A model generated the notes under the pieces. That model was not told the origin of the DNA. It saw only the letters and a list, made by a program, of their open reading frames with translations, and searched no databases. From the UHGV virus genome UHGV-0117806: a stretch of 22,166 bases of DNA. One strand, 5' to 3'. This stretch comes from a virus. How positions within the stretch are numbered: position 1 is the stretch's first letter; each line of letters begins with the position of its first letter. Below, piece after piece: positions 1,276 to 20,367 of the stretch. Both the position numbers and the translations under genes were made by a program.

Positions 1276-1996
1276 CCACTGCGGTGAGTAGCCAGCTCAC
1301 CGCGTGTGAATCCGGCTCATAACCACTGTAGCGAGTAGAACACCCTTCAGGTATGCACCCCAACCACTGTAGTGAGTAGAACACCATTCGGGTATGCACC
1401 CCAACCACTGTAGTGAGTAGAACACCATTCGGGTATGCACCCCAACCACTGTAGTGAGTAAAACACCATTCGGGTATGCACCCCAACCACTGTAGTGAGC
1501 AACCCCCCTGCCACGATATCAACTATCCACTGCAGTGAGTAAATTGGTGATTATCGGGGTCGCTATACACTGTAGTGAGTAAACAGGCGTTCACTGACTA
1601 CAAACAACCACTATAGAGAGTGATGGAATGCCCCCTCCAGCGGATATCCACTATGGAGAGTAAATCTTCGCTGTTTTAAACGGATATCCACTCACTACAG
1701 TGGATAGAGGTCAAGTCAGCCAATTCTGCTCTTCACAGTGGATAGTCAACAATGAGGAGAGCGACGATAACCGCTGTAGAGAGTAGACTTAACAGAGATA
1801 CCCAGTGACCGCTAACCTCTCAGCCCTTGTTTTATCTATGTTTGCAACCACTAACATTTACTTCGCGATTTGTGCGCACTGCCTACAGTGGTTATTCTTC
1901 GGTTTCTTTTACTCACTACAGTGGATATTGCATTTCCGATAAACAAAAAGGCTCACTACAGTAGATAGTGAGCCTTTTTACTCTCTACAGTGGTTG
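1276..1996. repeat. iteron array downstream of repA (about 17 copies of a CCACTGTAGTGAGTA-type core; incA-like control locus)
   Basis: Core copies at 1276, 1323, 1364, 1405, 1446, 1487, 1527, 1567, 1608, 1648, 1771 in direct orientation (1323-1501 are exact 41-bp tandem units); inverted copies (CTCACTACAGTGGATA) at about 1691, 1731, 1880, 1911, 1952, 1982. Confidence 0.85.
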
Positions 1997-1998
1997 GG

Positions 1999-3054
1999 CT
2001 ATTTGCGAGCCTTTGCCTTGCGCAGCTCTTCGAGAATCGCTAGTTCTTCCTTGCTCAACATGACCATTTCCCCGTCTTTTTCTTCAGGGGCAACATCGAT
2101 AATGTCCTCCGGATCATCACCTGGCAAAATATCTTCTGGCTCTTCAGGCGTAGCCATAGATGGCGGCAGTGCCGAACGTAACTTCGGCCGTCTATAGTGG
2201 ATGACGAAGTAGACCGAGCTGCCGCGTTTCACTTCAGTGTAATCGAGATAGCCGATCTCTCGCAGCTGCTCCATCGCCTTCCTGACTGTCGCATTCTGGG
2301 TAATGGTGCGGCTGGTTAAGTTAAGTCTGGCGCGTAAGCGAGCCAATGAGATTGGCGCCGGGTCTGGTGGCAAACTTTCAATGAAGGTGTAGAGCGCCTG
2401 CGCGGATTCTTTTCTGGAGAGTTCGTTGATGGCCCGAAGTTGCAAAAGCACCTTTTTGTCGAACTGGTAAAGTTCGAAAATCTTAGGATCGGCCTTCAGT
2501 TCGACCGTGTCATTCTTGGTACTGTACTTTGCCGTCTGCACAAGGTGCGTAACGTAATACTCTTCAGAGCCTTTGCTGCGGAATGAGATGGTGTTTGTGG
2601 CGATACGACTTAGAGAGCTGTCCAGGCGCTTACGTAACTTCGCGGACGATCTGGCTGTTGGTATGCCACAAAGTCTGACGAACTCGACGAACGGCAACGT
2701 GACGGTGTCACCAACAACCTTGTGCTTGGCGAACGCGTGGATGATGCCCACCCATGTTTTGAAATCGTTATCCATATCAAGACGAAGACCAGCAATCCTT
2801 ATATCCTCGTACCCTTCGGCTTTGGCCAGAGACAGCTGTTTGAGTTCAGCGGAGGCGTCCATAGAGACCATTTGCCCCTTTCTACCCCTGGATGTCGATT
2901 TCAGCGTCGGAACGAAGAGACCAAGACGCATCAGAGCAACAGGCTGAACTGTGTTGTTGGTGTTAGGAACTAACGTAACAACTTCGCCGGTCTTTTTGTC
3001 TGTTTCGGAAAATGCTTCGCTTATCGCAATGTTTTTATTGTCGTTTACGCTCAT
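1999..3054 (-). CDS. repA: iteron-binding replication initiator RepA (RepFIB / phage P1 RepA family)
   Basis: 351-aa ORF with blocks recognisable from RepFIB/P1 RepA ([58 protein letters not shown]); flanked on both sides by iterons. Confidence 0.92.
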
Positions 3055-3097
3055 TCCAAATGTCTCTTTTTATTCGACGGCTTGGGTGCCTTTACTG

Positions 3098-3217
3098 ATT
3101 ACAGTGGATAGTAGCACCCATCACAGTGGTTATCCTACCGCCTACAGCGGTTTTTCTACTCTCCATAGTGGTTGATTTACTCTCTATAGTGGTTGTTATT
3201 CTCACTATAGTGGATAT
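3098..3217. repeat. iteron set 1 upstream of repA (6 copies, TACAGTGG-type orientation)
   Basis: ttACAGTGGATA 3100, tcACAGTGGTTA 3121, CTACAGCGG 3143, CTCCATAGTGG 3160, CTCTATAGTGG 3181, CTCACTATAGTGGATA 3201. Confidence 0.8.
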
Positions 3218-3254
3218 CGATAACCTCTAAAGCCATGTGGCACAACGGTTTGCA

Positions 3255-3335
3255 GGGGCCGGGGATCTCTTTGGGTCTTTGTGGTTCTCTTTGGTTCTAA
3301 CAGGGATCTGAATTACTGGATCGGGCCTGTGTATA
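3255..3335. other. candidate origin module 1 (GGGGATCTCT...TGGATCGGGCCTGTG; 3 GATC sites)
   Basis: GATC at 3264, 3305, 3319 in an AT-rich gene-free stretch between two iteron sets; diverged duplicate of 3636-3712. Confidence 0.45.
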
Positions 3336-3495
3336 AAAATCAGATAATTACAAAATCAGGCATCACTCCCCTTCTGGGGATAATGTGTGATCGAAATAAA
3401 CACGCCGCAACGCAAAATTTACAATATTTCCAAGAATATCAGCCATCTGCCGCAGAAAAACAGGCTCGGAGTTATCCAGTTAAAACATTGTCTCC

Positions 3496-3600
3496 TACTC
3501 ACTACAGTGGATACCGACTACTCTCCAGAGAGGTTGTTTTGCTCTTCATAGCGGTTATTATGCTCTCTACAGTGGTTATTTTGCTCCCTATAGTGGATAG
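3496..3600. repeat. iteron set 2 upstream of repA (5 copies)
   Basis: CTCACTACAGTGGATA 3498, CTCTCCAGAGAGG 3521, CTCTTCATAGCGG 3543, CTCTCTACAGTGG 3563, CTCCCTATAGTGGATAG 3583. Confidence 0.8.
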
Positions 3601-3635
3601 TAACCCCTTCTCAAGCCAGTAACCGCAAGCGCTGG

Positions 3636-3712
3636 AGACGATCGGGGATCTCTTTTGATCTTCTGTAGGATCTCTCTGGGGATCTAAATATTGGATCGGG
3701 CCTGTGAATAAA
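3636..3712. other. candidate origin module 2 (Dam-site cluster: 6 GATC within about 60 bp)
   Basis: GATC at 3640, 3647, 3657, 3669, 3681, 3694, followed by TGGATCGGGCCTGTG as in module 1. This density is far above chance and typical of Dam/SeqA-controlled origins. Confidence 0.5.
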
Positions 3713-3796
3713 GTGAATAAGTAAACAGGCATTTGCAAACTCCGGTGCGCCTTATCCGTTATCGTTGCCCCGGACAAAATTATTTGAACAAGAATT

Positions 3797-4441
3797 ATGG
3801 ATCTTAAACGCACGCGCTGGGTTCGCCGTCTTGAAGATGGCTCCTACACCATTGAATCAAACACTAGTCTGAACAAACAGAAGTTGCTCTGCGACCTTTG
3901 CGGCATTGCTTCGAAATGCCCGATTAACGAAACCCGGCTTAAACTCCACGACGCCGGTGCGCATTTCCACCTAAACAGCTGCATACGTTACGTGCCACTA
4001 CTAGCATTTCGTAAACCGATCATCGGATTGGATGCTCCCTACTTCAACACACTGCGCTCTGGTGTCACTTGGCGAGATCGTGTCGAACCTGGCAAACTCG
4101 TTTGTCTGGTTGAAGCTGATACCGGAAATATCATCCGGTTCGGGAGAGTTGATAAGGTCTACTCAGGGCCGGTGGATGAAATGCTGCGGAAACACAGCCG
4201 ATTTAACCATCTCTGCATGGGCGGAGAGAAGATTGAGAAGGTTGGCGAAGTAATTCGCAAATCTTACGGACACTTTCTGAATGATAACAGCCTTCTGACA
4301 GCCATTTACATTCGCCATGTCGATCGGGAGTTCGACACGGAGTATCACAGTGTTGAAGAGTTGAATCTTGTAGACCCTCGTCCAAAAGCTGGGGTAATAG
4401 ACATCAGCAGAGCGCGTCAGAAGCCCTCAGAGACGTTTTAA
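3797..4441 (+). CDS. hypothetical protein (214 aa)
   Basis: Long ORF with ATG 3797 (no clear SD); no family recognised. Confidence 0.6.
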   Translation: MDLKRTRWVRRLEDGSYTIESNTSLNKQKLLCDLCGIASKCPINETRLKLHDAGAHFHLNSCIRYVPLLAFRKPIIGLDAPYFNTLRSGVTWRDRVEPGKLVCLVEADTGNIIRFGRVDKVYSGPVDEMLRKHSRFNHLCMGGEKIEKVGEVIRKSYGHFLNDNSLLTAIYIRHVDREFDTEYHSVEELNLVDPRPKAGVIDISRARQKPSETF

Positions 4442-4837
4442 AGGCAAACTCATGCTTTTTACCGGGCATAAAATATGGTGTCTTAGAAAGACACTGAGAG
4501 CTTTAGGGATTAATGCATGAGTGAATTTTATTCAAGAGCAGAAACTGTGGCCGACGGATGCGTTTGAAGACGACGCACGCAAACGCCGTAAATGTCATCT
4601 CACAACTTCACCGTCCGTTCTCCTTTTTCATTTCTTGTCATCAGTAAATGACTGCTCTCATAAAATTGCTTGTGACGTTTAGAAATCGTTGCTGCTCTAT
4701 CTGATAAGTATTTACTTACTTATTTTTTTATCATTATCATGTACCTTTATATTCTTTTGTATGCCGTTTTGTATGGGTTGTACGCCTCTTATGCACGCTT
4801 AGAATTTGTATCAAAATAACCACAAAGGAAAAGACAC

Positions 4838-5268
4838 ATGACATTGCCATACGGGGTAATATCAGATCCCCATTATCATCGTTGGGATGCTTTTGCGACA
4901 ACCCGCCCTACTCCAAAATCACCCCCTGGATAGACGCAGCCATTCGCGAGCAGGCGCGTGGAGTGACGACGGTCATGCTGATACCACAATCCCTCGATAC
5001 GCAGTGGTACGAGCGTGCGGCTGAATGCGCCAACGAAACCGTCATCTTGTCTGGCGGCCGCGTGGCGTTCGTTGAGCCGGATGTTGAACTTGGGCTGGTG
5101 GAGGTGAACATCAACCCTGGTGGCAGCATGTTGCTTATCTTCCGTGGCTACTGTCAGGAAGCTGGGCACACCATCAGCAAGATACCGCTGGCGGTGATGA
5201 AAAAGCTGGGTGGTTATGATCCTGCCAATGTTGTCAGGAAGAAGAGACCACGTAAAAAGGCAGCGTAA
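4838..5268 (+). pseudogene. phage-type N6-adenine DNA methyltransferase (small Dam family), apparently frameshifted/N-terminally truncated
   Basis: Good start (AAGGAA 4825-4830, ATG 4838) opens frame 2 and stops after about 31 codons. The DNPPY catalytic motif and the rest of the domain (…DNPPYSKITPWIDAAIRE…GGRVAFVEPD…) are in frame 1 (track ORF 4882..5268, TTG start, no SD). Confidence 0.5.
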
Positions 5269-7546: not shown

Positions 7547-7559
7547 GGCTATTGTATGA
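7302..7559 (+). CDS. hypothetical Thr/Pro-rich protein with hydrophobic N-terminal segment (85 aa)
   Basis: ATG 7302 (MENFQRNRLKSMAYGVILATLAAVTVPAG…); stop overlaps ATG 7556 of next gene (ATGA). Start uncertain. Confidence 0.4.
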   Translation: MENFQRNRLKSMAYGVILATLAAVTVPAGQSLLMPGTTTSTATTALQMTPLPERPPVSLDGMLMDTIPARPATPDLPSTVTEAIV

Positions 7560-7744
7560 AATGGAACTTCCAGAAATTCACCTTGATGATTGTTGGCTTT
7601 ACCGTTTTTTTGTTTAACGGCTGGATCATGAATCTGGTGAAACTTGTGAACGATGGCGATCTCCAGTCTCATGCCGGAGTGACACTTGCGCGTGTCGTGG
7701 GAGTTTTCATTGTTCCAGTGGGCGGCATCCTCGGGTTCTTTTAA
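7556..7744 (+). CDS. small membrane protein (62 aa)
   Basis: ATG 7556 coupled to upstream ORF; two hydrophobic segments (FTLMIVGFTVFLF, VVGVFIVPVGGILGFF). Confidence 0.5.
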   Translation: MKWNFQKFTLMIVGFTVFLFNGWIMNLVKLVNDGDLQSHAGVTLARVVGVFIVPVGGILGFF

Positions 7745-7779
7745 CCGACGAATAGGGGGGGGCATTAGCCCCTCAATCT

Positions 7780-8739
7780 TCACTCCGGCGCATCCAGCCA
7801 ATTATTAATGGCGTCTATTATTAAGTGTATATCTTCATGGTGATACAGATAAACGTCCAGTTTTTTGGCTGCTTGTCTGGCGTGAGGGGTAAACTCGCTG
7901 TTGCTGACTACTATTGCGAGGGAGCAATCGTAGAACTGTTTCGCGGAAAATGCTTCCTGAATAGCTTTGTTGCCTACTTTAGACTGGTAGTGTTTGCACT
8001 GAACAGCCATTCGAACTTCTCTATAGGTTACAAGGATATCCAGACCGTGATCGCCGCTGCCCTTAGTTACTTGGGTGTCGGATCCATACTTCATAAACTC
8101 CCCAGCGACAAAATGCTCATATTCGTGCCCGGTCAGTAGCGAAGTGTACTCAGGTAATTCAGGTTCTGGTGTATTGTCTACCACCGTCATAATGTGATTT
8201 ATTGCGCAGCGATCAAATTGTTCAGGCAACTGGAATTTAAAGTAAACTGGCCGCCCCCAGGCATTCTTGTCCTCCGACTCTGCCAACCAAAGGTTGTTGA
8301 GCCGGCCTGTGTTCTCTTCGATCCAATCGTAAACTTTCTCTTTTACTACCTTGTCATAAAAGTAGTCTACTTCATCAAACCACTTGTCAAAGTTCCAGAC
8401 CCCGTATTCATCCTGTGTTGTGAGTGTTTTTTCTTTTCTTTTCAAAGTGGTGAGATGCATTTCATAGAACTGAGGTAAAACTTTTATGAGTAGGTATGAA
8501 GTGAAGGCGCTTTGAATAAGCTTCTCTTTGGCTGACTTATAGTAAAAATCGTTACGATCGAACGCGCCGTTTTGCGTGATGTAGCTTCTAACTTCCATAT
8601 TTCGAAAAATGATATTGCGTGTTTTTTCCCATGCTTCATGTAGATCATTTTCAGCAACGAAGCTCATGACTTTCTGATAATGAGACTCCAAGCCCTCCCG
8701 GGCCTTAGTTTCTTCCGTTTTGAAAAGATTACCAAACAT
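7780..8739 (-). CDS. Mrr-like PD-(D/E)xK restriction-endonuclease-fold protein with unrecognised ~200-aa N-terminal domain
   Basis: C-terminal ~110 aa match the Mrr_cat pattern: GHEYEHFVAGEF…GSGDHGLDILV…VQCKHY…AIVVSNSEFTPHARQAA. N-terminal domain has no motif I recognise. Convergent with 7046-7744. Confidence 0.85.
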   Translation of the reverse strand: MFGNLFKTEETKAREGLESHYQKVMSFVAENDLHEAWEKTRNIIFRNMEVRSYITQNGAFDRNDFYYKSAKEKLIQSAFTSYLLIKVLPQFYEMHLTTLKRKEKTLTTQDEYGVWNFDKWFDEVDYFYDKVVKEKVYDWIEENTGRLNNLWLAESEDKNAWGRPVYFKFQLPEQFDRCAINHIMTVVDNTPEPELPEYTSLLTGHEYEHFVAGEFMKYGSDTQVTKGSGDHGLDILVTYREVRMAVQCKHYQSKVGNKAIQEAFSAKQFYDCSLAIVVSNSEFTPHARQAAKKLDVYLYHHEDIHLIIDAINNWLDAPE

Positions 8740-8912
8740 TTTGCTCTCTCTTAGGGACTGACGTCTGAATAGAACTTCGGCAATGAGAACATTCTGCTAT
8801 GAATGCCACTTTAAATAAATGTCTGGTATGCCTGATTTTTCCTTTTGCGTGTCTTTTCGCCTTAATGCAACTCTTCACATCATCATAGAATTTGAGACAA
8901 TTAAACAATTAA

Positions 8913-8930
8913 GAAAACAACTTGTTTAAA
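8913..8930 (+). promoter_or_regulatory. palindromic operator-like motif (AAAACAA-C-TTGTTTAAA) 18 nt upstream of ATG 8948
   Basis: Member of the recurring AAAACAA-N(1-3)-TTGTTT family (see findings). Confidence 0.5.
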
Positions 8931-8947: not shown

Positions 8948-9526
8948 ATGTGTGAAAAATGCAAAAAAACTAATGCCAAAGTTGAAAGCGTGATTAAAAA
9001 AGTTGGTGCGGCCGAACTGGTTGAGATCATGGGTCTTGTGGTTGGTCACGAAGACGACGCCTCCCCTATTGACCGCCTTTTCAGCGTTCTCAAGTTCTCA
9101 AGCATGATTGATGATCCGATTGAAATTGTGATGCTGGCGCGTCATTTCGGCGAAGCGTATCTGGAAGAGAAAGAACGCGCCGACAAACTTAAGGCAACTC
9201 TGGAAATGGTAAGCAAGCCGAAGTGCTCACCGGATTCAGTCAAGGCAGATGAAACCAACGCCAGCAAAGATCGTGAAATCGCCGGGCTGAAGTCTTCTCT
9301 GGCGATGTTGCTGGCCGCTTTCAAACTGATGTCTTCCCAGGCTGGGTTCAAAATGCCTGAGCTGAACAGCGACGATCCGATGGCCCTTCGCCAGCTGTTG
9401 GGGGCAATGGCCGACCAGCTTGACGACACCAAGAGCCGTCTTGAAGACATGATGCGCGAGCTGACCCATCGCCACGACCTGAACAAACAGCCGCAGCCGC
9501 AAAAGATGCAGCCTTTACATCATTAA
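8948..9526 (+). CDS. hypothetical protein (192 aa)
   Basis: AAGGAAG then ATG 8948; preceded by the palindrome motif; followed by hairpin GGGGC-aaa-GCCCC (9534-9546). Confidence 0.7.
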   Translation: MCEKCKKTNAKVESVIKKVGAAELVEIMGLVVGHEDDASPIDRLFSVLKFSSMIDDPIEIVMLARHFGEAYLEEKERADKLKATLEMVSKPKCSPDSVKADETNASKDREIAGLKSSLAMLLAAFKLMSSQAGFKMPELNSDDPMALRQLLGAMADQLDDTKSRLEDMMRELTHRHDLNKQPQPQKMQPLHH

Positions 9527-9551
9527 TATATATGGGGCAAAGCCCCCTACT

Positions 9552-9971
9552 CTACTTTGCGGCGTCTAACAATAAGCCGCAATTTTCGCTCATGTATGCC
9601 GCAGTTGCCGGATTGCCTCTGTCATTATTCGAATTGTTCATTTCAGGGTGAGCGTCCCAGGCCACTGATTCCTGAGATGATAGATAGACGGCAAAGTCGA
9701 CGATTTCATCATCTCCGGTTTTAACGTTGCCAAGCAATTCATTTGCCTTTCTCCAGTGCTTCAGCGCGAGAATTCTGAACTGTTTTGCATTTTCAGCAGG
9801 CACTGCACTGGATTTGTCTGTGTAGATATTCGATATGTCGGCATAAAGAGCGCATTTAACATAGCTGGTTGCCCTGCCGGTCTCTTTAAAACCTTGCTCT
9901 GTGTTGTTGGCGTAGACATTCACAGCAAAAGCGCTGGCAATTCCCAGCAATATAATTTTCTTCATCATCAT
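9552..9971 (-). CDS. secreted protein with signal peptide (139 aa)
   Basis: N-terminus MMMKKIILLGIASAFAVNVYA is signal-peptide-like; no SD seen and exact start among three ATGs is uncertain. Confidence 0.55.
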   Translation of the reverse strand: MMMKKIILLGIASAFAVNVYANNTEQGFKETGRATSYVKCALYADISNIYTDKSSAVPAENAKQFRILALKHWRKANELLGNVKTGDDEIVDFAVYLSSQESVAWDAHPEMNNSNNDRGNPATAAYMSENCGLLLDAAK

Positions 9972-10096
9972 TACTCAATAAGGAGGCGACAAATATCTTA
10001 CGTGTAGTTGTCAGTTGAGTATTAAGCAAACTCAATAAACTTATAAGTATCTCCCTGTGCAGCTTGTGAATCCTTATTTATTACCTACTCAATTTT

Positions 10097-10130
10097 GAAA
10101 TAATAACACCAACAAAAAAACAATTTGTTT
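10097..10130 (+). promoter_or_regulatory. conserved promoter-operator module (TGaAATAAT extended -10-like box + AAACAATTTGTTT palindrome 10118-10130)
   Basis: gaaATAATAACACCAACAAaaAAACAATTTGTTT, 12 nt upstream of ATG 10143. Confidence 0.55.
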
Positions 10131-10142
10131 AATGGTGCAATC

Positions 10143-14524: not shown

Positions 14525-14564
14525 TCATCCCTTAAACATTTTGTTTTCTACCTTTTGTTATTTG

Positions 14565-14597
14565 AGATAATAACACAAATAAGAAAACAAATTGTTT
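14565..14597 (+). promoter_or_regulatory. conserved promoter-operator module (TGaGATAAT + AAAACAAATTGTTT)
   Basis: gaGATAATAACACAAATAAGAAAACAAATTGTTT then AAGGAG and ATG 14610; a second degenerate palindrome AAACATTTTGTTT lies at 14534-14546. Confidence 0.55.
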
Positions 14598-14609
14598 AAG
14601 GAGTTGATC

Positions 14610-15239: not shown

Positions 15240-15809
15240 ATGGATGTGATGGAAACCCAGAACCAACAAACAAAACCTCTGAATAATGCTTATGCGTGGC
15301 TTCTAGCTTTACTGCCTCTCTTCTTTGGAGCACCGCCAGATGAGTATTTGAATTATGCAATAGTGATAGGTGGAGTCGCTGGACTCGGCTTTCTGGTGGC
15401 TGACAGAATGGCATTGTCTGATGCAGGGTATGAACCACCGGCCATCCTGTGGGGAGTATTTCTCCTTCCGGTCTATCTCTGGAAACGTGCCACCGTTACA
15501 AAAGGCAGTCGACTTCCTTTTATCGTAATCGTCGCGTTGCTTGCTGGTAACATCTTCATCGGTATCACACACCAGGAAGAGGTTGCTCTTGAAGAAGCGG
15601 CTTGTCCTCTCGTAACGACCATTCTGAAAGAGAATAACGGAACCACAGCGCCGAAATGTATGAAGGTGACAATTCAGGACAAGGTGACGGACAAGTTCTA
15701 TAAAGCGACGGCTACGCTGGATAACGGCAACGACATAAACGTTACTCTGGAACTGACCGGCGAAAGAAACTTTTATGTGCGCGTTCCGGATGCCTATCTG
15801 AACAACTAA
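15240..15809 (+). CDS. hypothetical membrane protein (189 aa; start 15240 or 15249)
   Basis: Two or three hydrophobic segments near the N-terminus (AYAWLLALLPLFFGA, AIVIGGVAGLGFLVA, ILWGVFLLPVYLW) then a soluble C-terminal domain. Confidence 0.6.
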   Translation: MDVMETQNQQTKPLNNAYAWLLALLPLFFGAPPDEYLNYAIVIGGVAGLGFLVADRMALSDAGYEPPAILWGVFLLPVYLWKRATVTKGSRLPFIVIVALLAGNIFIGITHQEEVALEEAACPLVTTILKENNGTTAPKCMKVTIQDKVTDKFYKATATLDNGNDINVTLELTGERNFYVRVPDAYLNN

Positions 15810-16883
15810 CGGCTGCAGCTCGTTGATATTGGCGGTCACAAATTGAGGATTTCTATAAGAGTCCGTTGATCGCCACTTTCCCCACCACCCTACCCCACTC
15901 AATCCCAGGCGTGACAAGGCATTTAAGCCAATTACACCCATAAGAAAACAAATAAATAACACATCAACGTAAAGTCAACGCTTTCCCCTGATTTGGTCTA
16001 AAAAGTTGATGTTTTCGCACGCCATCTCTTATACCCAAATCCAGCGTACCAGAATCCATCTCCCTGCGACCAAAACGTCAAAAACGACTCGTGATACCAC
16101 CCAAAAACAGACACGCTCAGAAGCGCTCCCGTTGCGTTATATTGGACATCTAAACAAGTTGTTTTCAGACACAAGAAAACAAGCTAACCACACCCACAGG
16201 AAACCCAGAGACGCCATTACCCACATTCCCAAAAACAACCAACCTCTTTATGGCAGGCTACTGAAAAGACCCACCTCTTCTTCCCAGGCTACCGGACAAC
16301 CAACCTAACTTTCACAGGCAACTCGAAACATTCATACATGCGATACCCACTATACGCCATTCCCCAAACAGCGAATAAACACCAGAACCACTGAAACTCT
16401 AACGAAGCCTGTTACCGCAAGGACTCCCTCAATCACCAAAGACACGAAACAGAACATTCGCGGGGAAACGCCATTACTCAATACACGAATAACCACAAAA
16501 GCCTTTCACGCTCTCAAGGTAAACAACTCAAATACAATAACGAAAGGAATCGCCCACCTGCCATTACTCCATACACAGAGAAGAACAATCACCAAAACAA
16601 CGAGAACAACCCTGACGAAAACACAGAGATTAATCACCTCAAGAAGAACGAAACCACATACGCCGGTAGAGAGTACAACCCACCCATTTCACCCACAGGA
16701 ATAGTCGCCGTATTGAGCGTTATCAGAGAGAAGGTTTATACCCACATAAGAGAGAAAATTCGTGGGAGGTATAAGTGGGAAGGGAAGGAGGGGTATCGCC
16801 ACTTTCTTCGTATAAATTCAAGCCATAGTTTTCGTCCCCCGTAACGTCCCTATCCACCCCTTCGGTCAGCCTTCGGGCCATCC

Positions 16884-17063
16884 AGGGAAAAGGCCATGTC
16901 CCTTTTCAGGAACGGGAACGTCGCCGCAGGGAAAAGGCTGGAGGTTTTTCAGGGAAACGGTGGGAATCCCGCTATACGAACCGGGAAAAGGCTGGCTGCC
17001 GGTCGGGAAACGGGTACATCCCGGTACAGAGTGAGAGACGACTGCGGGAGCAGTGCGGGAAAT
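16884..17063. repeat. array of about 7 direct GGGAAA(A/C)GG-type repeats
   Basis: CAGGGAAAAGG 16884, CAGGAACGGGA 16908, CAGGGAAAAGG 16927, CAGGGAAACGG 16950, CGGGAAAAGGC 16982, CGGGAAACGGG 17004, CGGGAAATC 17055; spacing 23-32 bp. Track ORF 16896..17339 here is non-protein-like. Confidence 0.6.
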
Positions 17064-17330
17064 CTTCGGGAGTGCGCCTTACTCTTCACTCGCCTGAAAA
17101 TCGCGGGGGAGTGTCATTCCCTCTCGTGCAGCTACTGGACTCCAGTCTGCCAGACCATCATCGGATCTCAAGCGATTTCAGTAGGTTTTCGGGGAGAAGG
17201 ATATTCTGCCCACCAGCCCCGCGGCGCGCGTAGAGCAGAATATCGTAAATACTGGCTCCCGTGTCGTTCCCGGATATTCACTGCCCAGCCTGGCTTTCCC
17301 GACATAAAATCCTTTTTCGCCTTTGTCTTA

Positions 17331-17368
17331 TTGCGATAATAACACCAACAAGTAAACAACATATTTAG
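17331..17368 (+). promoter_or_regulatory. conserved promoter module (TGcGATAAT + degenerate palindrome)
   Basis: TTGCGATAATAACACCAACAAGTAAACAACATATTTAG upstream of ATG 17399. Confidence 0.5.
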
Positions 17369-17688: not shown

Positions 17689-17746
17689 CTTTGTGGCCGT
17701 TTTCTTACTGGTATTGTTTACGCAATTCAGAAAACAACATGTTTAA
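17689..17746 (+). promoter_or_regulatory. conserved promoter-operator module, class II (TTGTGG…TGgTATTGT + AACATGTT palindrome)
   Basis: CTTTGTGGCCGTTTTCTTACTGGTATTGTTTACGCAATTCAGAAAACAACATGTTTAA; near-identical to the 18180-18236 module. Confidence 0.55.
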
Positions 17747-18179: not shown

Positions 18180-18236
18180 CTTTGTAGCCGTTTTTACACT
18201 GGTATTATTTACGCCATTGAGAAAACAATTTGTTTA
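18180..18236 (+). promoter_or_regulatory. conserved promoter-operator module, class II (TTGTAG…TGgTATTAT + AAACAATTTGTTT)
   Basis: CTTTGTAGCCGTTTTTACACTGGTATTATTTACGCCATTGAGAAAACAATTTGTTTA; palindrome 18223-18235, 12 nt before ATG 18247. Confidence 0.55.
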
Positions 18237-18246
18237 CGGAGTGGTG

Positions 18247-19742: not shown

Positions 19743-19850
19743 AAATGACTTTTAATAACCGAAGGTTAGTTTGAAACCTGGCTATCAACTTCCAGAACCT
19801 TTCTTGTGTATTCAGCCTGTATTAACTTCTTTTATGCCTTATCTACACTG

Positions 19851-19883
19851 CGATAATTACACCAACAAGAAAACAATATGTTT
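19851..19883 (+). promoter_or_regulatory. conserved promoter-operator module (TGcGATAAT + AAACAATATGTTT)
   Basis: CGATAATTACACCAACAAGAAAACAATATGTTTACG, then GAGG and ATG 19897. Confidence 0.55.
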
Positions 19884-19896
19884 ACGCAGTGAGGAT

Positions 19897-20189: not shown

Positions 20190-20213
20190 AAGGCCACCAA
20201 TGCTGGTGGCCTT
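20190..20213 (+). terminator. hairpin terminator AAGGCCACCA-atgc-TGGTGGCCTT followed by AAATGAC
   Basis: Perfect 10-bp stem directly after stop of 19897..20184. Confidence 0.65.
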
Positions 20214-20334
20214 AAATGACCATCCTGTTTCCCGCAGGCTAAAAACACCAACCTCTTACCTCCAGGCAACCGACAAACCCACCTGTTCCCGTCCGGCTAC
20301 CGCAACTTTCCACTTTGACGCCTTATTCGTACAA

Positions 20335-20367
20335 CGATAATTAACACCAACAAGAAAACAATTTGTT
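20335..20367 (+). promoter_or_regulatory. conserved promoter-operator module (GATAAT + AAAACAATTTGTT)
   Basis: CGATAATTAACACCAACAAGAAAACAATTTGTTATTTA, then AAGGA and ATG 20389. Confidence 0.55.

Follow-up and report, generated by a model that had tools for sequence, protein, structure and literature searches.

Introduction

Epona, from the chromosomal integron of Vibrio cholerae, is an anti-phage cassette of one gene; it encodes a protein with a two-transmembrane (2-TM) "holin-like" N-terminus and a Mrr_cat nuclease domain, and protects Escherichia coli (10.1101/2024.07.02.601686). In Shedu (SduA), N-terminal domains gate cleavage (PMC12904381). SNIPE, a membrane-bound nuclease, cleaves phage DNA during injection (10.1101/2025.11.03.685801) and has a cytoplasmic DUF4041 domain (PMC12904381). 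SSU5-type phage-plasmids carry variable defence systems (10.1101/2025.09.12.675607). Here we analysed a nuclease gene on the minus strand of UHGV virus genome UHGV-0117806, a stretch of 22,166 nucleotides hereafter called the window. The encoded protein is a Mrr_cat nuclease of the single-gene type whose N-terminal region is non-canonical, and the window is part of an SSU5-type phage-plasmid of E. coli. A preliminary description of this gene had recognised the Mrr catalytic pattern and proposed a novel sensor domain together with a single-gene role in defence or plasmid competition. The observation was confirmed, and the interpretation was partly supported.

Results

The C-terminal region is a Mrr_cat nuclease domain

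The open reading frame (ORF) starts with ATG, and its position and sequence agreed with the preliminary description. From N- to C-terminus the protein consists of an input domain, a unit that we call the DDYG module, an insert and the Mrr_cat nuclease (coordinates in Table 1). In plasmid pYLPI6a the product is entered in RefSeq as WP_089591471.1 under the generic label "restriction endonuclease". A search of 5.8 billion sequences returned full-length homologues of 308-326 amino acids (aa), with identity down to 37%. The coding sequence (CDS) is a real protein-coding gene. The ratio of non-synonymous to synonymous substitution rates (dN/dS) was 0.05 overall, calculated for the sole pair with unsaturated synonymous sites; the gene is under purifying selection. 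AlphaFold2 gave confident models both of the whole protein (mean predicted local distance difference test [pLDDT] 89, predicted template modelling score [pTM] 0.68) and of residues 1-200 alone (pLDDT 89, pTM 0.83), the two modelling checks that the preliminary description had suggested. No known fold was recovered for the N-terminal part.

The Mrr catalytic pattern was confirmed by Pfam PF04471, which matched residues 202-303 with E=2.1e-21 (76.6 bits; cutoff 21), and the GDHGLD...QCK motif is conserved. NA-iREase1 (E=3e-11, 43.6 bits), RRG7 and Mrr_cat_2 gave weaker Pfam matches overlapping the same region. The assignment of this region to the PD-(D/E)xK fold was upheld by the Pfam profile and by Foldseek, in which the predicted structure matched AF1548 (1y88), VC1899, Cdn1, EndoMS, MspJI, AspBHI, Can2 and Hjc through the nuclease domain only. 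The fold matched nothing but nuclease domains, those of defence and restriction enzymes. The alpha-beta-beta-beta-alpha-beta core was present in the predicted model as helix 204-216, strands 221-224, 235-239 and 242-249, helix 258-269 and strand 274-279. E208 lies upstream of the catalytic core, on helix 204-216. E208, D230, G232, D234, Q247 and K249 were invariant among the 11 sequences of the close family and nearly invariant among 120 wider relatives. A profile built from those 120 sequences aligned "gDQGvDviae...viqCKkY" to AF1548 (1y88) and to LlaBIII (4xqk), a type ISP enzyme whose Mrr-like nuclease domain has the motif "DTGVDLVAE...IQAKFY". PDB sequence searches with the single protein or a narrow profile gave nothing significant; the matches to 1y88 and 4xqk came from the 120-sequence profile alone. 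Because the catalytic positions are conserved and the motif aligns with those of 1y88 and LlaBIII, the domain looks catalytically competent.

A PADLOC search, also suggested in the preliminary description, returned matches to the nuclease domain but no model covering more of the protein. The C-terminal region (residues ~196-305) matched the nuclease ends of ZorD, PDC-S02 and LmuA with E=1e-15 to 8e-11. In PHROGs, phrog_19856 and phrog_17577, both annotated "restriction endonuclease", matched only the C-terminal ~110 residues.

The overlapping NA-iREase1 match raises the question of a catalytically dead or decaying nuclease fold that only binds DNA or another protein. We consider this extremely improbable: Mrr_cat scored far above NA-iREase1 in the same region, the catalytic positions stay invariant, or nearly so, from 11 to 120 sequences, and dN/dS is low. 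Assignment to inactive NA-iREase1 proteins, which are marked by loss of catalytic residues and association with a NACHT NTPase, was rejected on the intact catalytic residues, the lack of an NTPase and the weaker score.

The N-terminal region contains a widespread module between clade-specific segments

Residues 1-200 had no match in Pfam, NCBIfam, PHROG, PADLOC or PDB, and NCBIfam returned nothing for the whole protein. No Mrr_N winged helix was matched at E<=1, and classical Mrr was rejected on this result. The preliminary description was thus right that the N-terminal 200 residues are unrecognised and that the classical winged helix is missing. The model of this region is helical with one hairpin, and no segment of the protein reached the hydrophobicity threshold for a TM helix; the protein is soluble. 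The region is not the one "novel sensor domain" proposed earlier. It is a composite of a clade-specific input (residues 1-85), a widespread adaptor, which is the DDYG module (residues 86-142), and a clade-specific insert (residues 143-200).

The module was delineated by running an N-domain profile exhaustively with HMMER against 1.84 billion cluster representatives (E<=1e-3). The profile matched 391 protein clusters, nearly all of them only at profile positions ~85-137; about 6 of the 391 representatives spanned most of the N-domain. The module signature is H..TL.RK...L...DDYG......W..E..YF, represented in the window protein by H95, T98, L99, R101, K102, L106, D110, E111, Y112, G113, W120, E123, Y126 and F127. 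Among 165 module copies the signature positions, polar ones included, were conserved at 81-99% (H95 81%, L99 98%, K102 93%, D110 96%, Y112 98%, G113 99%, W120 94%, E123 97%, F127 93%). Mrr_cat was present in 113 of 120 module carriers, and no Pfam family covered the module in these 120 proteins. In the wider family, the catalytic DxGxD follows DDYG at a median distance of ~101 aa (10th-90th percentile 90-124); at 120 aa, the window protein falls inside this range. At least 9 proteins contain two or three tandem copies of the module; thus, the module behaves as an independent unit. Judged by sequence, the DDYG-module/Mrr_cat proteins form a subfamily, unnamed before and delineated in the present analysis, and the window protein has both its signature and its spacing.

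The inputs N-terminal to the module vary among relatives. Some have one TM helix or a TM hairpin, others have Sel1 repeats, zinc fingers of the topoisomerase type or soluble segments, and still others a signal peptide followed by a ~180-aa extracytoplasmic region and a TM helix. A TM-like segment was present upstream in 63% of Mrr-bearing representatives, and the module began at a median of ~35 aa past it. The flanks of these segments followed the positive-inside rule (K/R 3.55 vs 1.11; 58 of 74 proteins; p=4e-10), by which the module and nuclease of the TM-bearing relatives would lie in the cytoplasm. Four relatives (P0016, P0020, P0024 and P0053) combine a signal peptide, the ~180-aa extracytoplasmic region, which had no Pfam match, a TM helix, two or three tandem modules and Mrr_cat. 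Their layout suggests transmembrane signalling to the nuclease.

Within the close family, the four parts of the protein evolve at different rates. The nuclease (residues 201-303) showed 77-81% aa identity and dN of 0.11-0.17, the module 51-70% and 0.17-0.37, the input 29-62% and 0.27-0.69, and the insert 40-62% and 0.29-0.66. Non-synonymous change in the input and insert was 2.5-4 times that of the nuclease.

One reading of the module is that it is the signal-transmitting adaptor of a large, undescribed one-component "sensor-nuclease" family, in which interchangeable inputs would switch on a cytoplasmic Mrr_cat nuclease and of which the window protein would be a soluble member. We regard this as rather unlikely. 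If true, it would mean a new single-gene defence family and a new sensing domain; Epona might be one of its membrane-bound branches, and the fast-evolving helical input of the window protein would directly recognise a phage or plasmid component.

The gene occupies a replacement cassette in an SSU5-type phage-plasmid

The mobile replicon assumed in the preliminary description proved to be an SSU5-like IncFIB phage-plasmid. Related records are non-mobilizable IncFIB plasmids of ~96-120 kb with genes for thymidylate synthase, dihydrofolate reductase, RNase HI and baseplate proteins, and the window was ~90% identical to Salmonella phage SSU5 over conserved blocks. Pairwise blastn showed that the nuclease gene lies in a replacement cassette whose flanks are 93-98% identical between elements and whose interior is unrelated. 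The cassette occupies the slot of a ~1-kb Ant/Rha anti-repressor cassette in SSU5 (SSU5_093) and pNT1F34. It was present in only 7 of 26 related plasmids, its G+C content was 0.405 vs ~0.49 in the flanks, and it holds the nuclease gene alone, with no cognate methyltransferase. The surrounding genes are on the plus strand and the nuclease gene is on the opposite strand. It had been described as convergent with its neighbours; this is correct for the 62-aa gene at 7556..7744, but the gene is divergent from the one at 8948..9526.

These features bear on the possibility that the nuclease serves the phage-plasmid's own DNA metabolism, as a resolvase of recombination intermediates, in host-DNA degradation or in lytic genome processing. 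The surrounding genes are of replication and nucleotide metabolism, with RNase HI and methyltransferases in the window, relatives add thymidylate synthase and an exonuclease, and Hjc resolvases were weak structural matches. However, SSU5 and most relatives have the anti-repressor in the slot instead of the nuclease, the gene runs against the phage operons, its G+C content is foreign to the backbone, and homologues occur in non-phage contexts. Such a housekeeping role is very improbable. A homing endonuclease was rejected, since the gene is found in too wide a range of contexts and came in by replacement rather than insertion.

The right boundary of the cassette coincides with one copy of a repeated ~40-nt motif that heads the adjacent plus-strand gene, and the promoter scan placed a plus-strand promoter-like site at 8874-8901. 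In the motif, whose consensus is about ATTTGAGAtAATaACACcAAcAAGAAAACAAnTTGTTTAA, a -10-like GATAAT precedes the palindrome AAACAAnTTGTTT. The motif occurs 8-9 times in the window (8890-8929, 10093-10132, 14560-14599, 15921-15960, 17329-17368, 17707-17746, 18198-18237, 19846-19885 and 20342-20367), always 5' of plus-strand genes, and is probably the phage-plasmid's repeated, repressor-controlled promoter-operator. The nuclease gene is outside the regulon of this motif. Two of the copies flank variable slots, and the copies at such slots may be recombination points for cassette exchange.

A G+C-rich hairpin lies 3' of the nuclease stop codon, between the two convergent genes and within the cassette. 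It is a possible bidirectional terminator, which the consensus terminator scan missed because its T-run is weak.

The main rival to a defence function of the kind set out below is a type IV restriction endonuclease, which would depend on DNA modification. Its N-terminal helices would then be a new modified-DNA reader in place of the Mrr winged helix or the MspJI SRA domain, and the enzyme would cut phage or plasmid DNA whose bases are hypermodified or that bears foreign methylation. Enzymes of the Mrr and MspJI types use Mrr_cat for catalysis, MspJI and AspBHI were among the structural matches, and the cassette carries no cognate methyltransferase. PADLOC mREase_IV models were matched by 54 of the 120 wider-family members; however, the window protein itself had no mREase_IV match even at E<1, and no Mrr_N, SRA, PUA-like or other known modified-base reader was found in it. 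The mostly membrane-anchored and receptor-like architectures of the relatives would also be unusual for type IV enzymes. The state of the neighbouring methyltransferases, which are SSU5 backbone genes present with or without the cassette, was mixed. The Dam-like gene is truncated in the window (at 4900) and frameshifted in pYLPI6a, and it is full length in 273 of 275 related plasmids; yet it is intact in four other nuclease carriers (L013, L014, CP057716 and CP110979), and the downstream DUF4942 methyltransferase gene is intact. Loss of the Dam-like enzyme in 2 of ~6 nuclease carriers is a weak hint, not decisive. We consider a type IV enzyme possible but unlikely.

The gene is rare, and its homologues are solitary cargo of diverse mobile elements

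The allele was found in 6 of 5,426 complete E. coli genomes, plasmid-borne every time. Of 72,556 plasmids, 8 had the N-terminal domain; seven of these were E. coli plasmids, and the eighth, at 62% identity, belonged to Cronobacter sakazakii. A profile search of contigs from species-representative genomes returned a single full-length homologue, on a Klebsiella chromosome. Diverged alleles occupy the same SSU5-like slot in L014 (62% aa identity; backbone 76-82% identical) and in L031, which carries P0006 (65%); three diverged alleles share this slot. P0003 (70%) resides in an integrase/DUF5906/resolvase island at two different E. coli chromosomal sites. P0004 (69%) adjoins IncFII RepA and TraX, P0008 (37%) adjoins a resolvase and a RecD2-like helicase, and P0007 (50%) is located on the border of a prophage-lysis and S-type bacteriocin remnant. 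Alleles are thus solitary cargo of five kinds of mobile element.

Comparison of six contexts revealed no common neighbour gene, and therefore the nuclease gene works alone, as the preliminary description had stated. This finding also bears on an addiction or inter-element competition toxin, which would act by post-segregational killing or by destroying co-resident rival plasmids. The gene occurs only on mobile elements, beside a resolvase in two contexts and beside IncFII RepA in one, and a nuclease is potentially toxic. The six contexts share no adjacent antitoxin or immunity gene, however, upstream DNA is not conserved between alleles, and SSU5-type elements persist without the nuclease in most lineages. 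A toxin of this kind is improbable; a toxin-antitoxin pair was rejected for want of a conserved partner.

Several side observations were made in these contexts. The P0003 island in L005 contains a complete PD-Lambda-2 system (2487-5111), ~5 kb from the nuclease homologue, with HigB-like, Peptidase_M78 and Beta_protein components; its B and C components matched with E=1e-187 and 1e-157. Three genes without annotation lie on the other side, and one of them has a tRNA_anti-like OB fold. A TerB-domain gene is located directly 3' of the nuclease allele in L014 (7149-7529) and L031 (2118-2701), accompanied in L031 by a DUF3927 mini-gene; the window has only the 62-aa gene at this position and lacks the TerB-domain gene.

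Features of the locus and other observations in the window

The coordinates of the nuclease gene, its domains and the associated elements are listed in Table 1.

Table 1. Features of the nuclease locus (window coordinates)
Feature	Position	Strand	Basis
CDS, 319 aa	7780..8739	-	ORF list, homologous-plasmid annotation, full-length homologues P0001-P0008, AlphaFold2
Input region, residues 1-85; helices 9-30, 34-44, 50-57, 65-87	8485..8739	-	models, search coverage, dN
DDYG module, residues 86-142; helix 89-105, beta-hairpin 108-116, helix 118-142	8314..8484	-	profile search, conservation
Insert, residues 143-200; short strands, helix 175-189, PEPELPEY linker	8140..8313	-	models, dN
Mrr_cat PD-(D/E)xK nuclease domain, residues 202-303	7831..8136	-	Pfam PF04471, Foldseek, PADLOC
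Catalytic core D230-H-G-L-D234 ... Q247-C-K249	7993..8052	-	alignments
Shine-Dalgarno-like AGAGAGA, 5-11 nt 5' of ATG	8745..8751	-	read from sequence
G+C-rich hairpin GGGGGGC-ATTA-GCCCCTC (plus strand)	7757..7774		read from sequence
Replacement cassette, ~1.15 kb	7743..8896		pairwise blastn
Right boundary, one copy of the repeated ~40-nt motif heading the adjacent plus-strand gene	8890..8929	+	repeat search; context, not part of the gene

A second opposite-strand gene, at 9552-9971 (minus strand, 139 aa), lies in the next variable slot (~9496-10090). Its product has a signal-peptide-like N-terminus (MMMKKIILLGIASAFAVNVYA) and gave no Pfam or PADLOC match; the gene is absent in SSU5 and pYLPI6a and present in pE16EC1016-4. 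The left part of the window contains a plasmid replicon with a Rep3-type initiator ORF at 1999-3054 (minus strand; Rep3_N E=2e-11). On the flanks of the initiator ORF are a 41-bp repeat in 4.4 tandem copies and ~21-bp iteron-like arrays with the core CTACAGTGG (1321-1499 and 1901-3599). The truncated Dam-like gene encodes an N6-adenine methyltransferase of the SSU5_088 type; it occupies 4900-5268, lacks its 5' part and retains residues 84-195, and homology to all SSU5-like phages starts at 4900. At 15501-17000 the strand composition is strongly anomalous, with a GC skew of about -0.23 and an AT skew that reaches +0.31. The same stretch contains 30-31-nt repeats at 16232-16328, which recur at 20213-20276, and a 24-nt repeat at 16573-16629.

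Discussion

A possible exclusion or defence nuclease

We tentatively favour, as the leading reading, a single-polypeptide exclusion or defence nuclease carried as accessory cargo of the SSU5-type phage-plasmid and gated by its N-terminal region. Nuclease activity, N-terminal gating, expression in lysogeny and an anti-phage or anti-plasmid role are what we infer. In the proposed mechanism, Mrr_cat would be a metal-dependent PD-(D/E)xK DNA endonuclease acting through E208, D230, D234 and Q247-x-K249, and the N-terminal 200 residues would decide when or where it cuts. Within this Mrr_cat subfamily, the DDYG module would serve as the constant adaptor. The module follows TM helices in most relatives, and there the nuclease would be held at the cytoplasmic face of the membrane; specificity would then come at least partly from the inner-membrane location, as argued for SNIPE and Zorya. 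In the clade of the window protein, the membrane anchor would have been replaced by the soluble, fast-evolving helical input and the insert. It is the helical input that would sense some feature of an invader or its DNA, as the N-terminal domains do in Shedu (PMC12904381); most likely it would restrain or target the nuclease, gating it in the manner of Shedu, until such a feature is met, either a phage or plasmid protein or a DNA structure. Because the gene is transcribed against the phage-plasmid operons and from its own cassette, the nuclease would act in the plasmid-prophage state, protecting both the host and the element from competitors.

The single-gene role in defence or competition proposed in the preliminary description fits the opposite-strand cassette, the dip in G+C content to 40%, the mobile cargo and the parallel with Epona. 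As support for a defence function we counted the opposite-strand swap into the Ant/Rha slot, the gene's own hairpin and low G+C content, its rarity and patchiness, its carriage as solitary mobile cargo, the island shared with PD-Lambda-2, the three diverged alleles in one SSU5-like slot, the variable defence systems already known from SSU5-type phage-plasmids, the Epona precedent, and Shedu and SNIPE as precedents for nucleases gated N-terminally or by location. Several points weigh against it. PADLOC 2023 defence hidden Markov models covered the nuclease domain only. In a test made elsewhere, the one PDC-S02 representative assayed failed to protect against T7, T5 or T4. Faster evolution of the input could reflect relaxed constraint, not an arms race. 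The consensus promoter scan of the minus strand at 8740-8890 revealed no strong sigma-70 consensus. The orientation of the N-domain relative to the nuclease is less certain in the predicted structure, as indicated by the lower pTM of the full model.

SSU5-type phage-plasmids are common in clinical Enterobacteriaceae. An exclusion nuclease would add defence cargo to these elements, and their anti-repressor slot would have a second role as a place where such cargo is exchanged. For a specialist, a stand-alone Mrr-type nuclease in a variable slot of a phage-plasmid would come as no surprise; the DDYG module family is the concrete lead. The module offers a handle on several hundred clusters that are annotated "restriction endonuclease", uncharacterised and mostly membrane-anchored, and it suggests testable ideas on how Mrr-type nucleases may be tethered or gated when no reader of DNA modification is present. 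For biochemistry, the soluble version from E. coli would be the easiest family member.

Comparison with known systems

PADLOC matches to defence proteins were confined to the nuclease. PDC-S02, an unvalidated PADLOC candidate, has a homologous nuclease domain, a similar size and the nuclease at the same position. Membership of full-length PDC-S02 was nevertheless rejected: the best model, PDLC04819, aligned residues 196-299 to only positions 190-297 of its 334, and relatives behaved alike. In Zorya, ZorD joins an SNF2 helicase to the Mrr-like nuclease and has zorABC as neighbours; Zorya was rejected since the match to the ZorD profile was limited to its final ~110 positions and no helicase or zor genes were nearby. 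Lamassu was rejected since the similarity to LmuA was limited to the nuclease domain. The window locus lacks the multi-domain or multi-gene systems to which ZorD, LmuA and Avs belong, and the N-terminal 200 residues of the window protein are unrelated to these proteins and to PDC-S02.

E. coli Mrr and MspJI share with the window protein a Mrr_cat-type PD-(D/E)xK domain with D...D...QxK, and likewise are stand-alone genes with no methyltransferase. They differ in the N-terminus: the window protein has an alpha-helical region with no PDB match, rather than a Mrr_N winged helix or an SRA-like reader. The domain order of Mrr, a reader followed by the nuclease, is shared, although the reader is unrelated.

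Shedu resembles the window protein in combining, in a single gene, a constant PD-(D/E)xK nuclease with highly variable N-terminal domains, TM helices among them, and in N-terminal gating. Its nuclease belongs to the DUF4263 family, however, and it has no DDYG module; membership in Shedu was rejected in the absence of any DUF4263 or SduA match in Pfam or PADLOC. As a cytoplasm-facing nuclease tethered to the inner membrane, SNIPE parallels in concept the TM-anchored DDYG-Mrr_cat proteins, which are the majority. It differs in that its DUF4041 domain is unrelated and the window protein is soluble.

By architecture, Epona appears to be the closest experimentally validated system, compared here by its description only. 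No Vibrio member was among the 20 matches listed in the DDYG-family profile search, which covered at most 8,000 candidates. The window protein differs from Epona in lacking TM helices and having a soluble helical domain in their place. Both are one polypeptide with a C-terminal Mrr_cat domain and a non-nuclease N-terminus, encoded with no partner gene in a small mobile cassette, and the Epona layout, a 2-TM hairpin followed by Mrr_cat, is that of many module-bearing relatives of the window protein.

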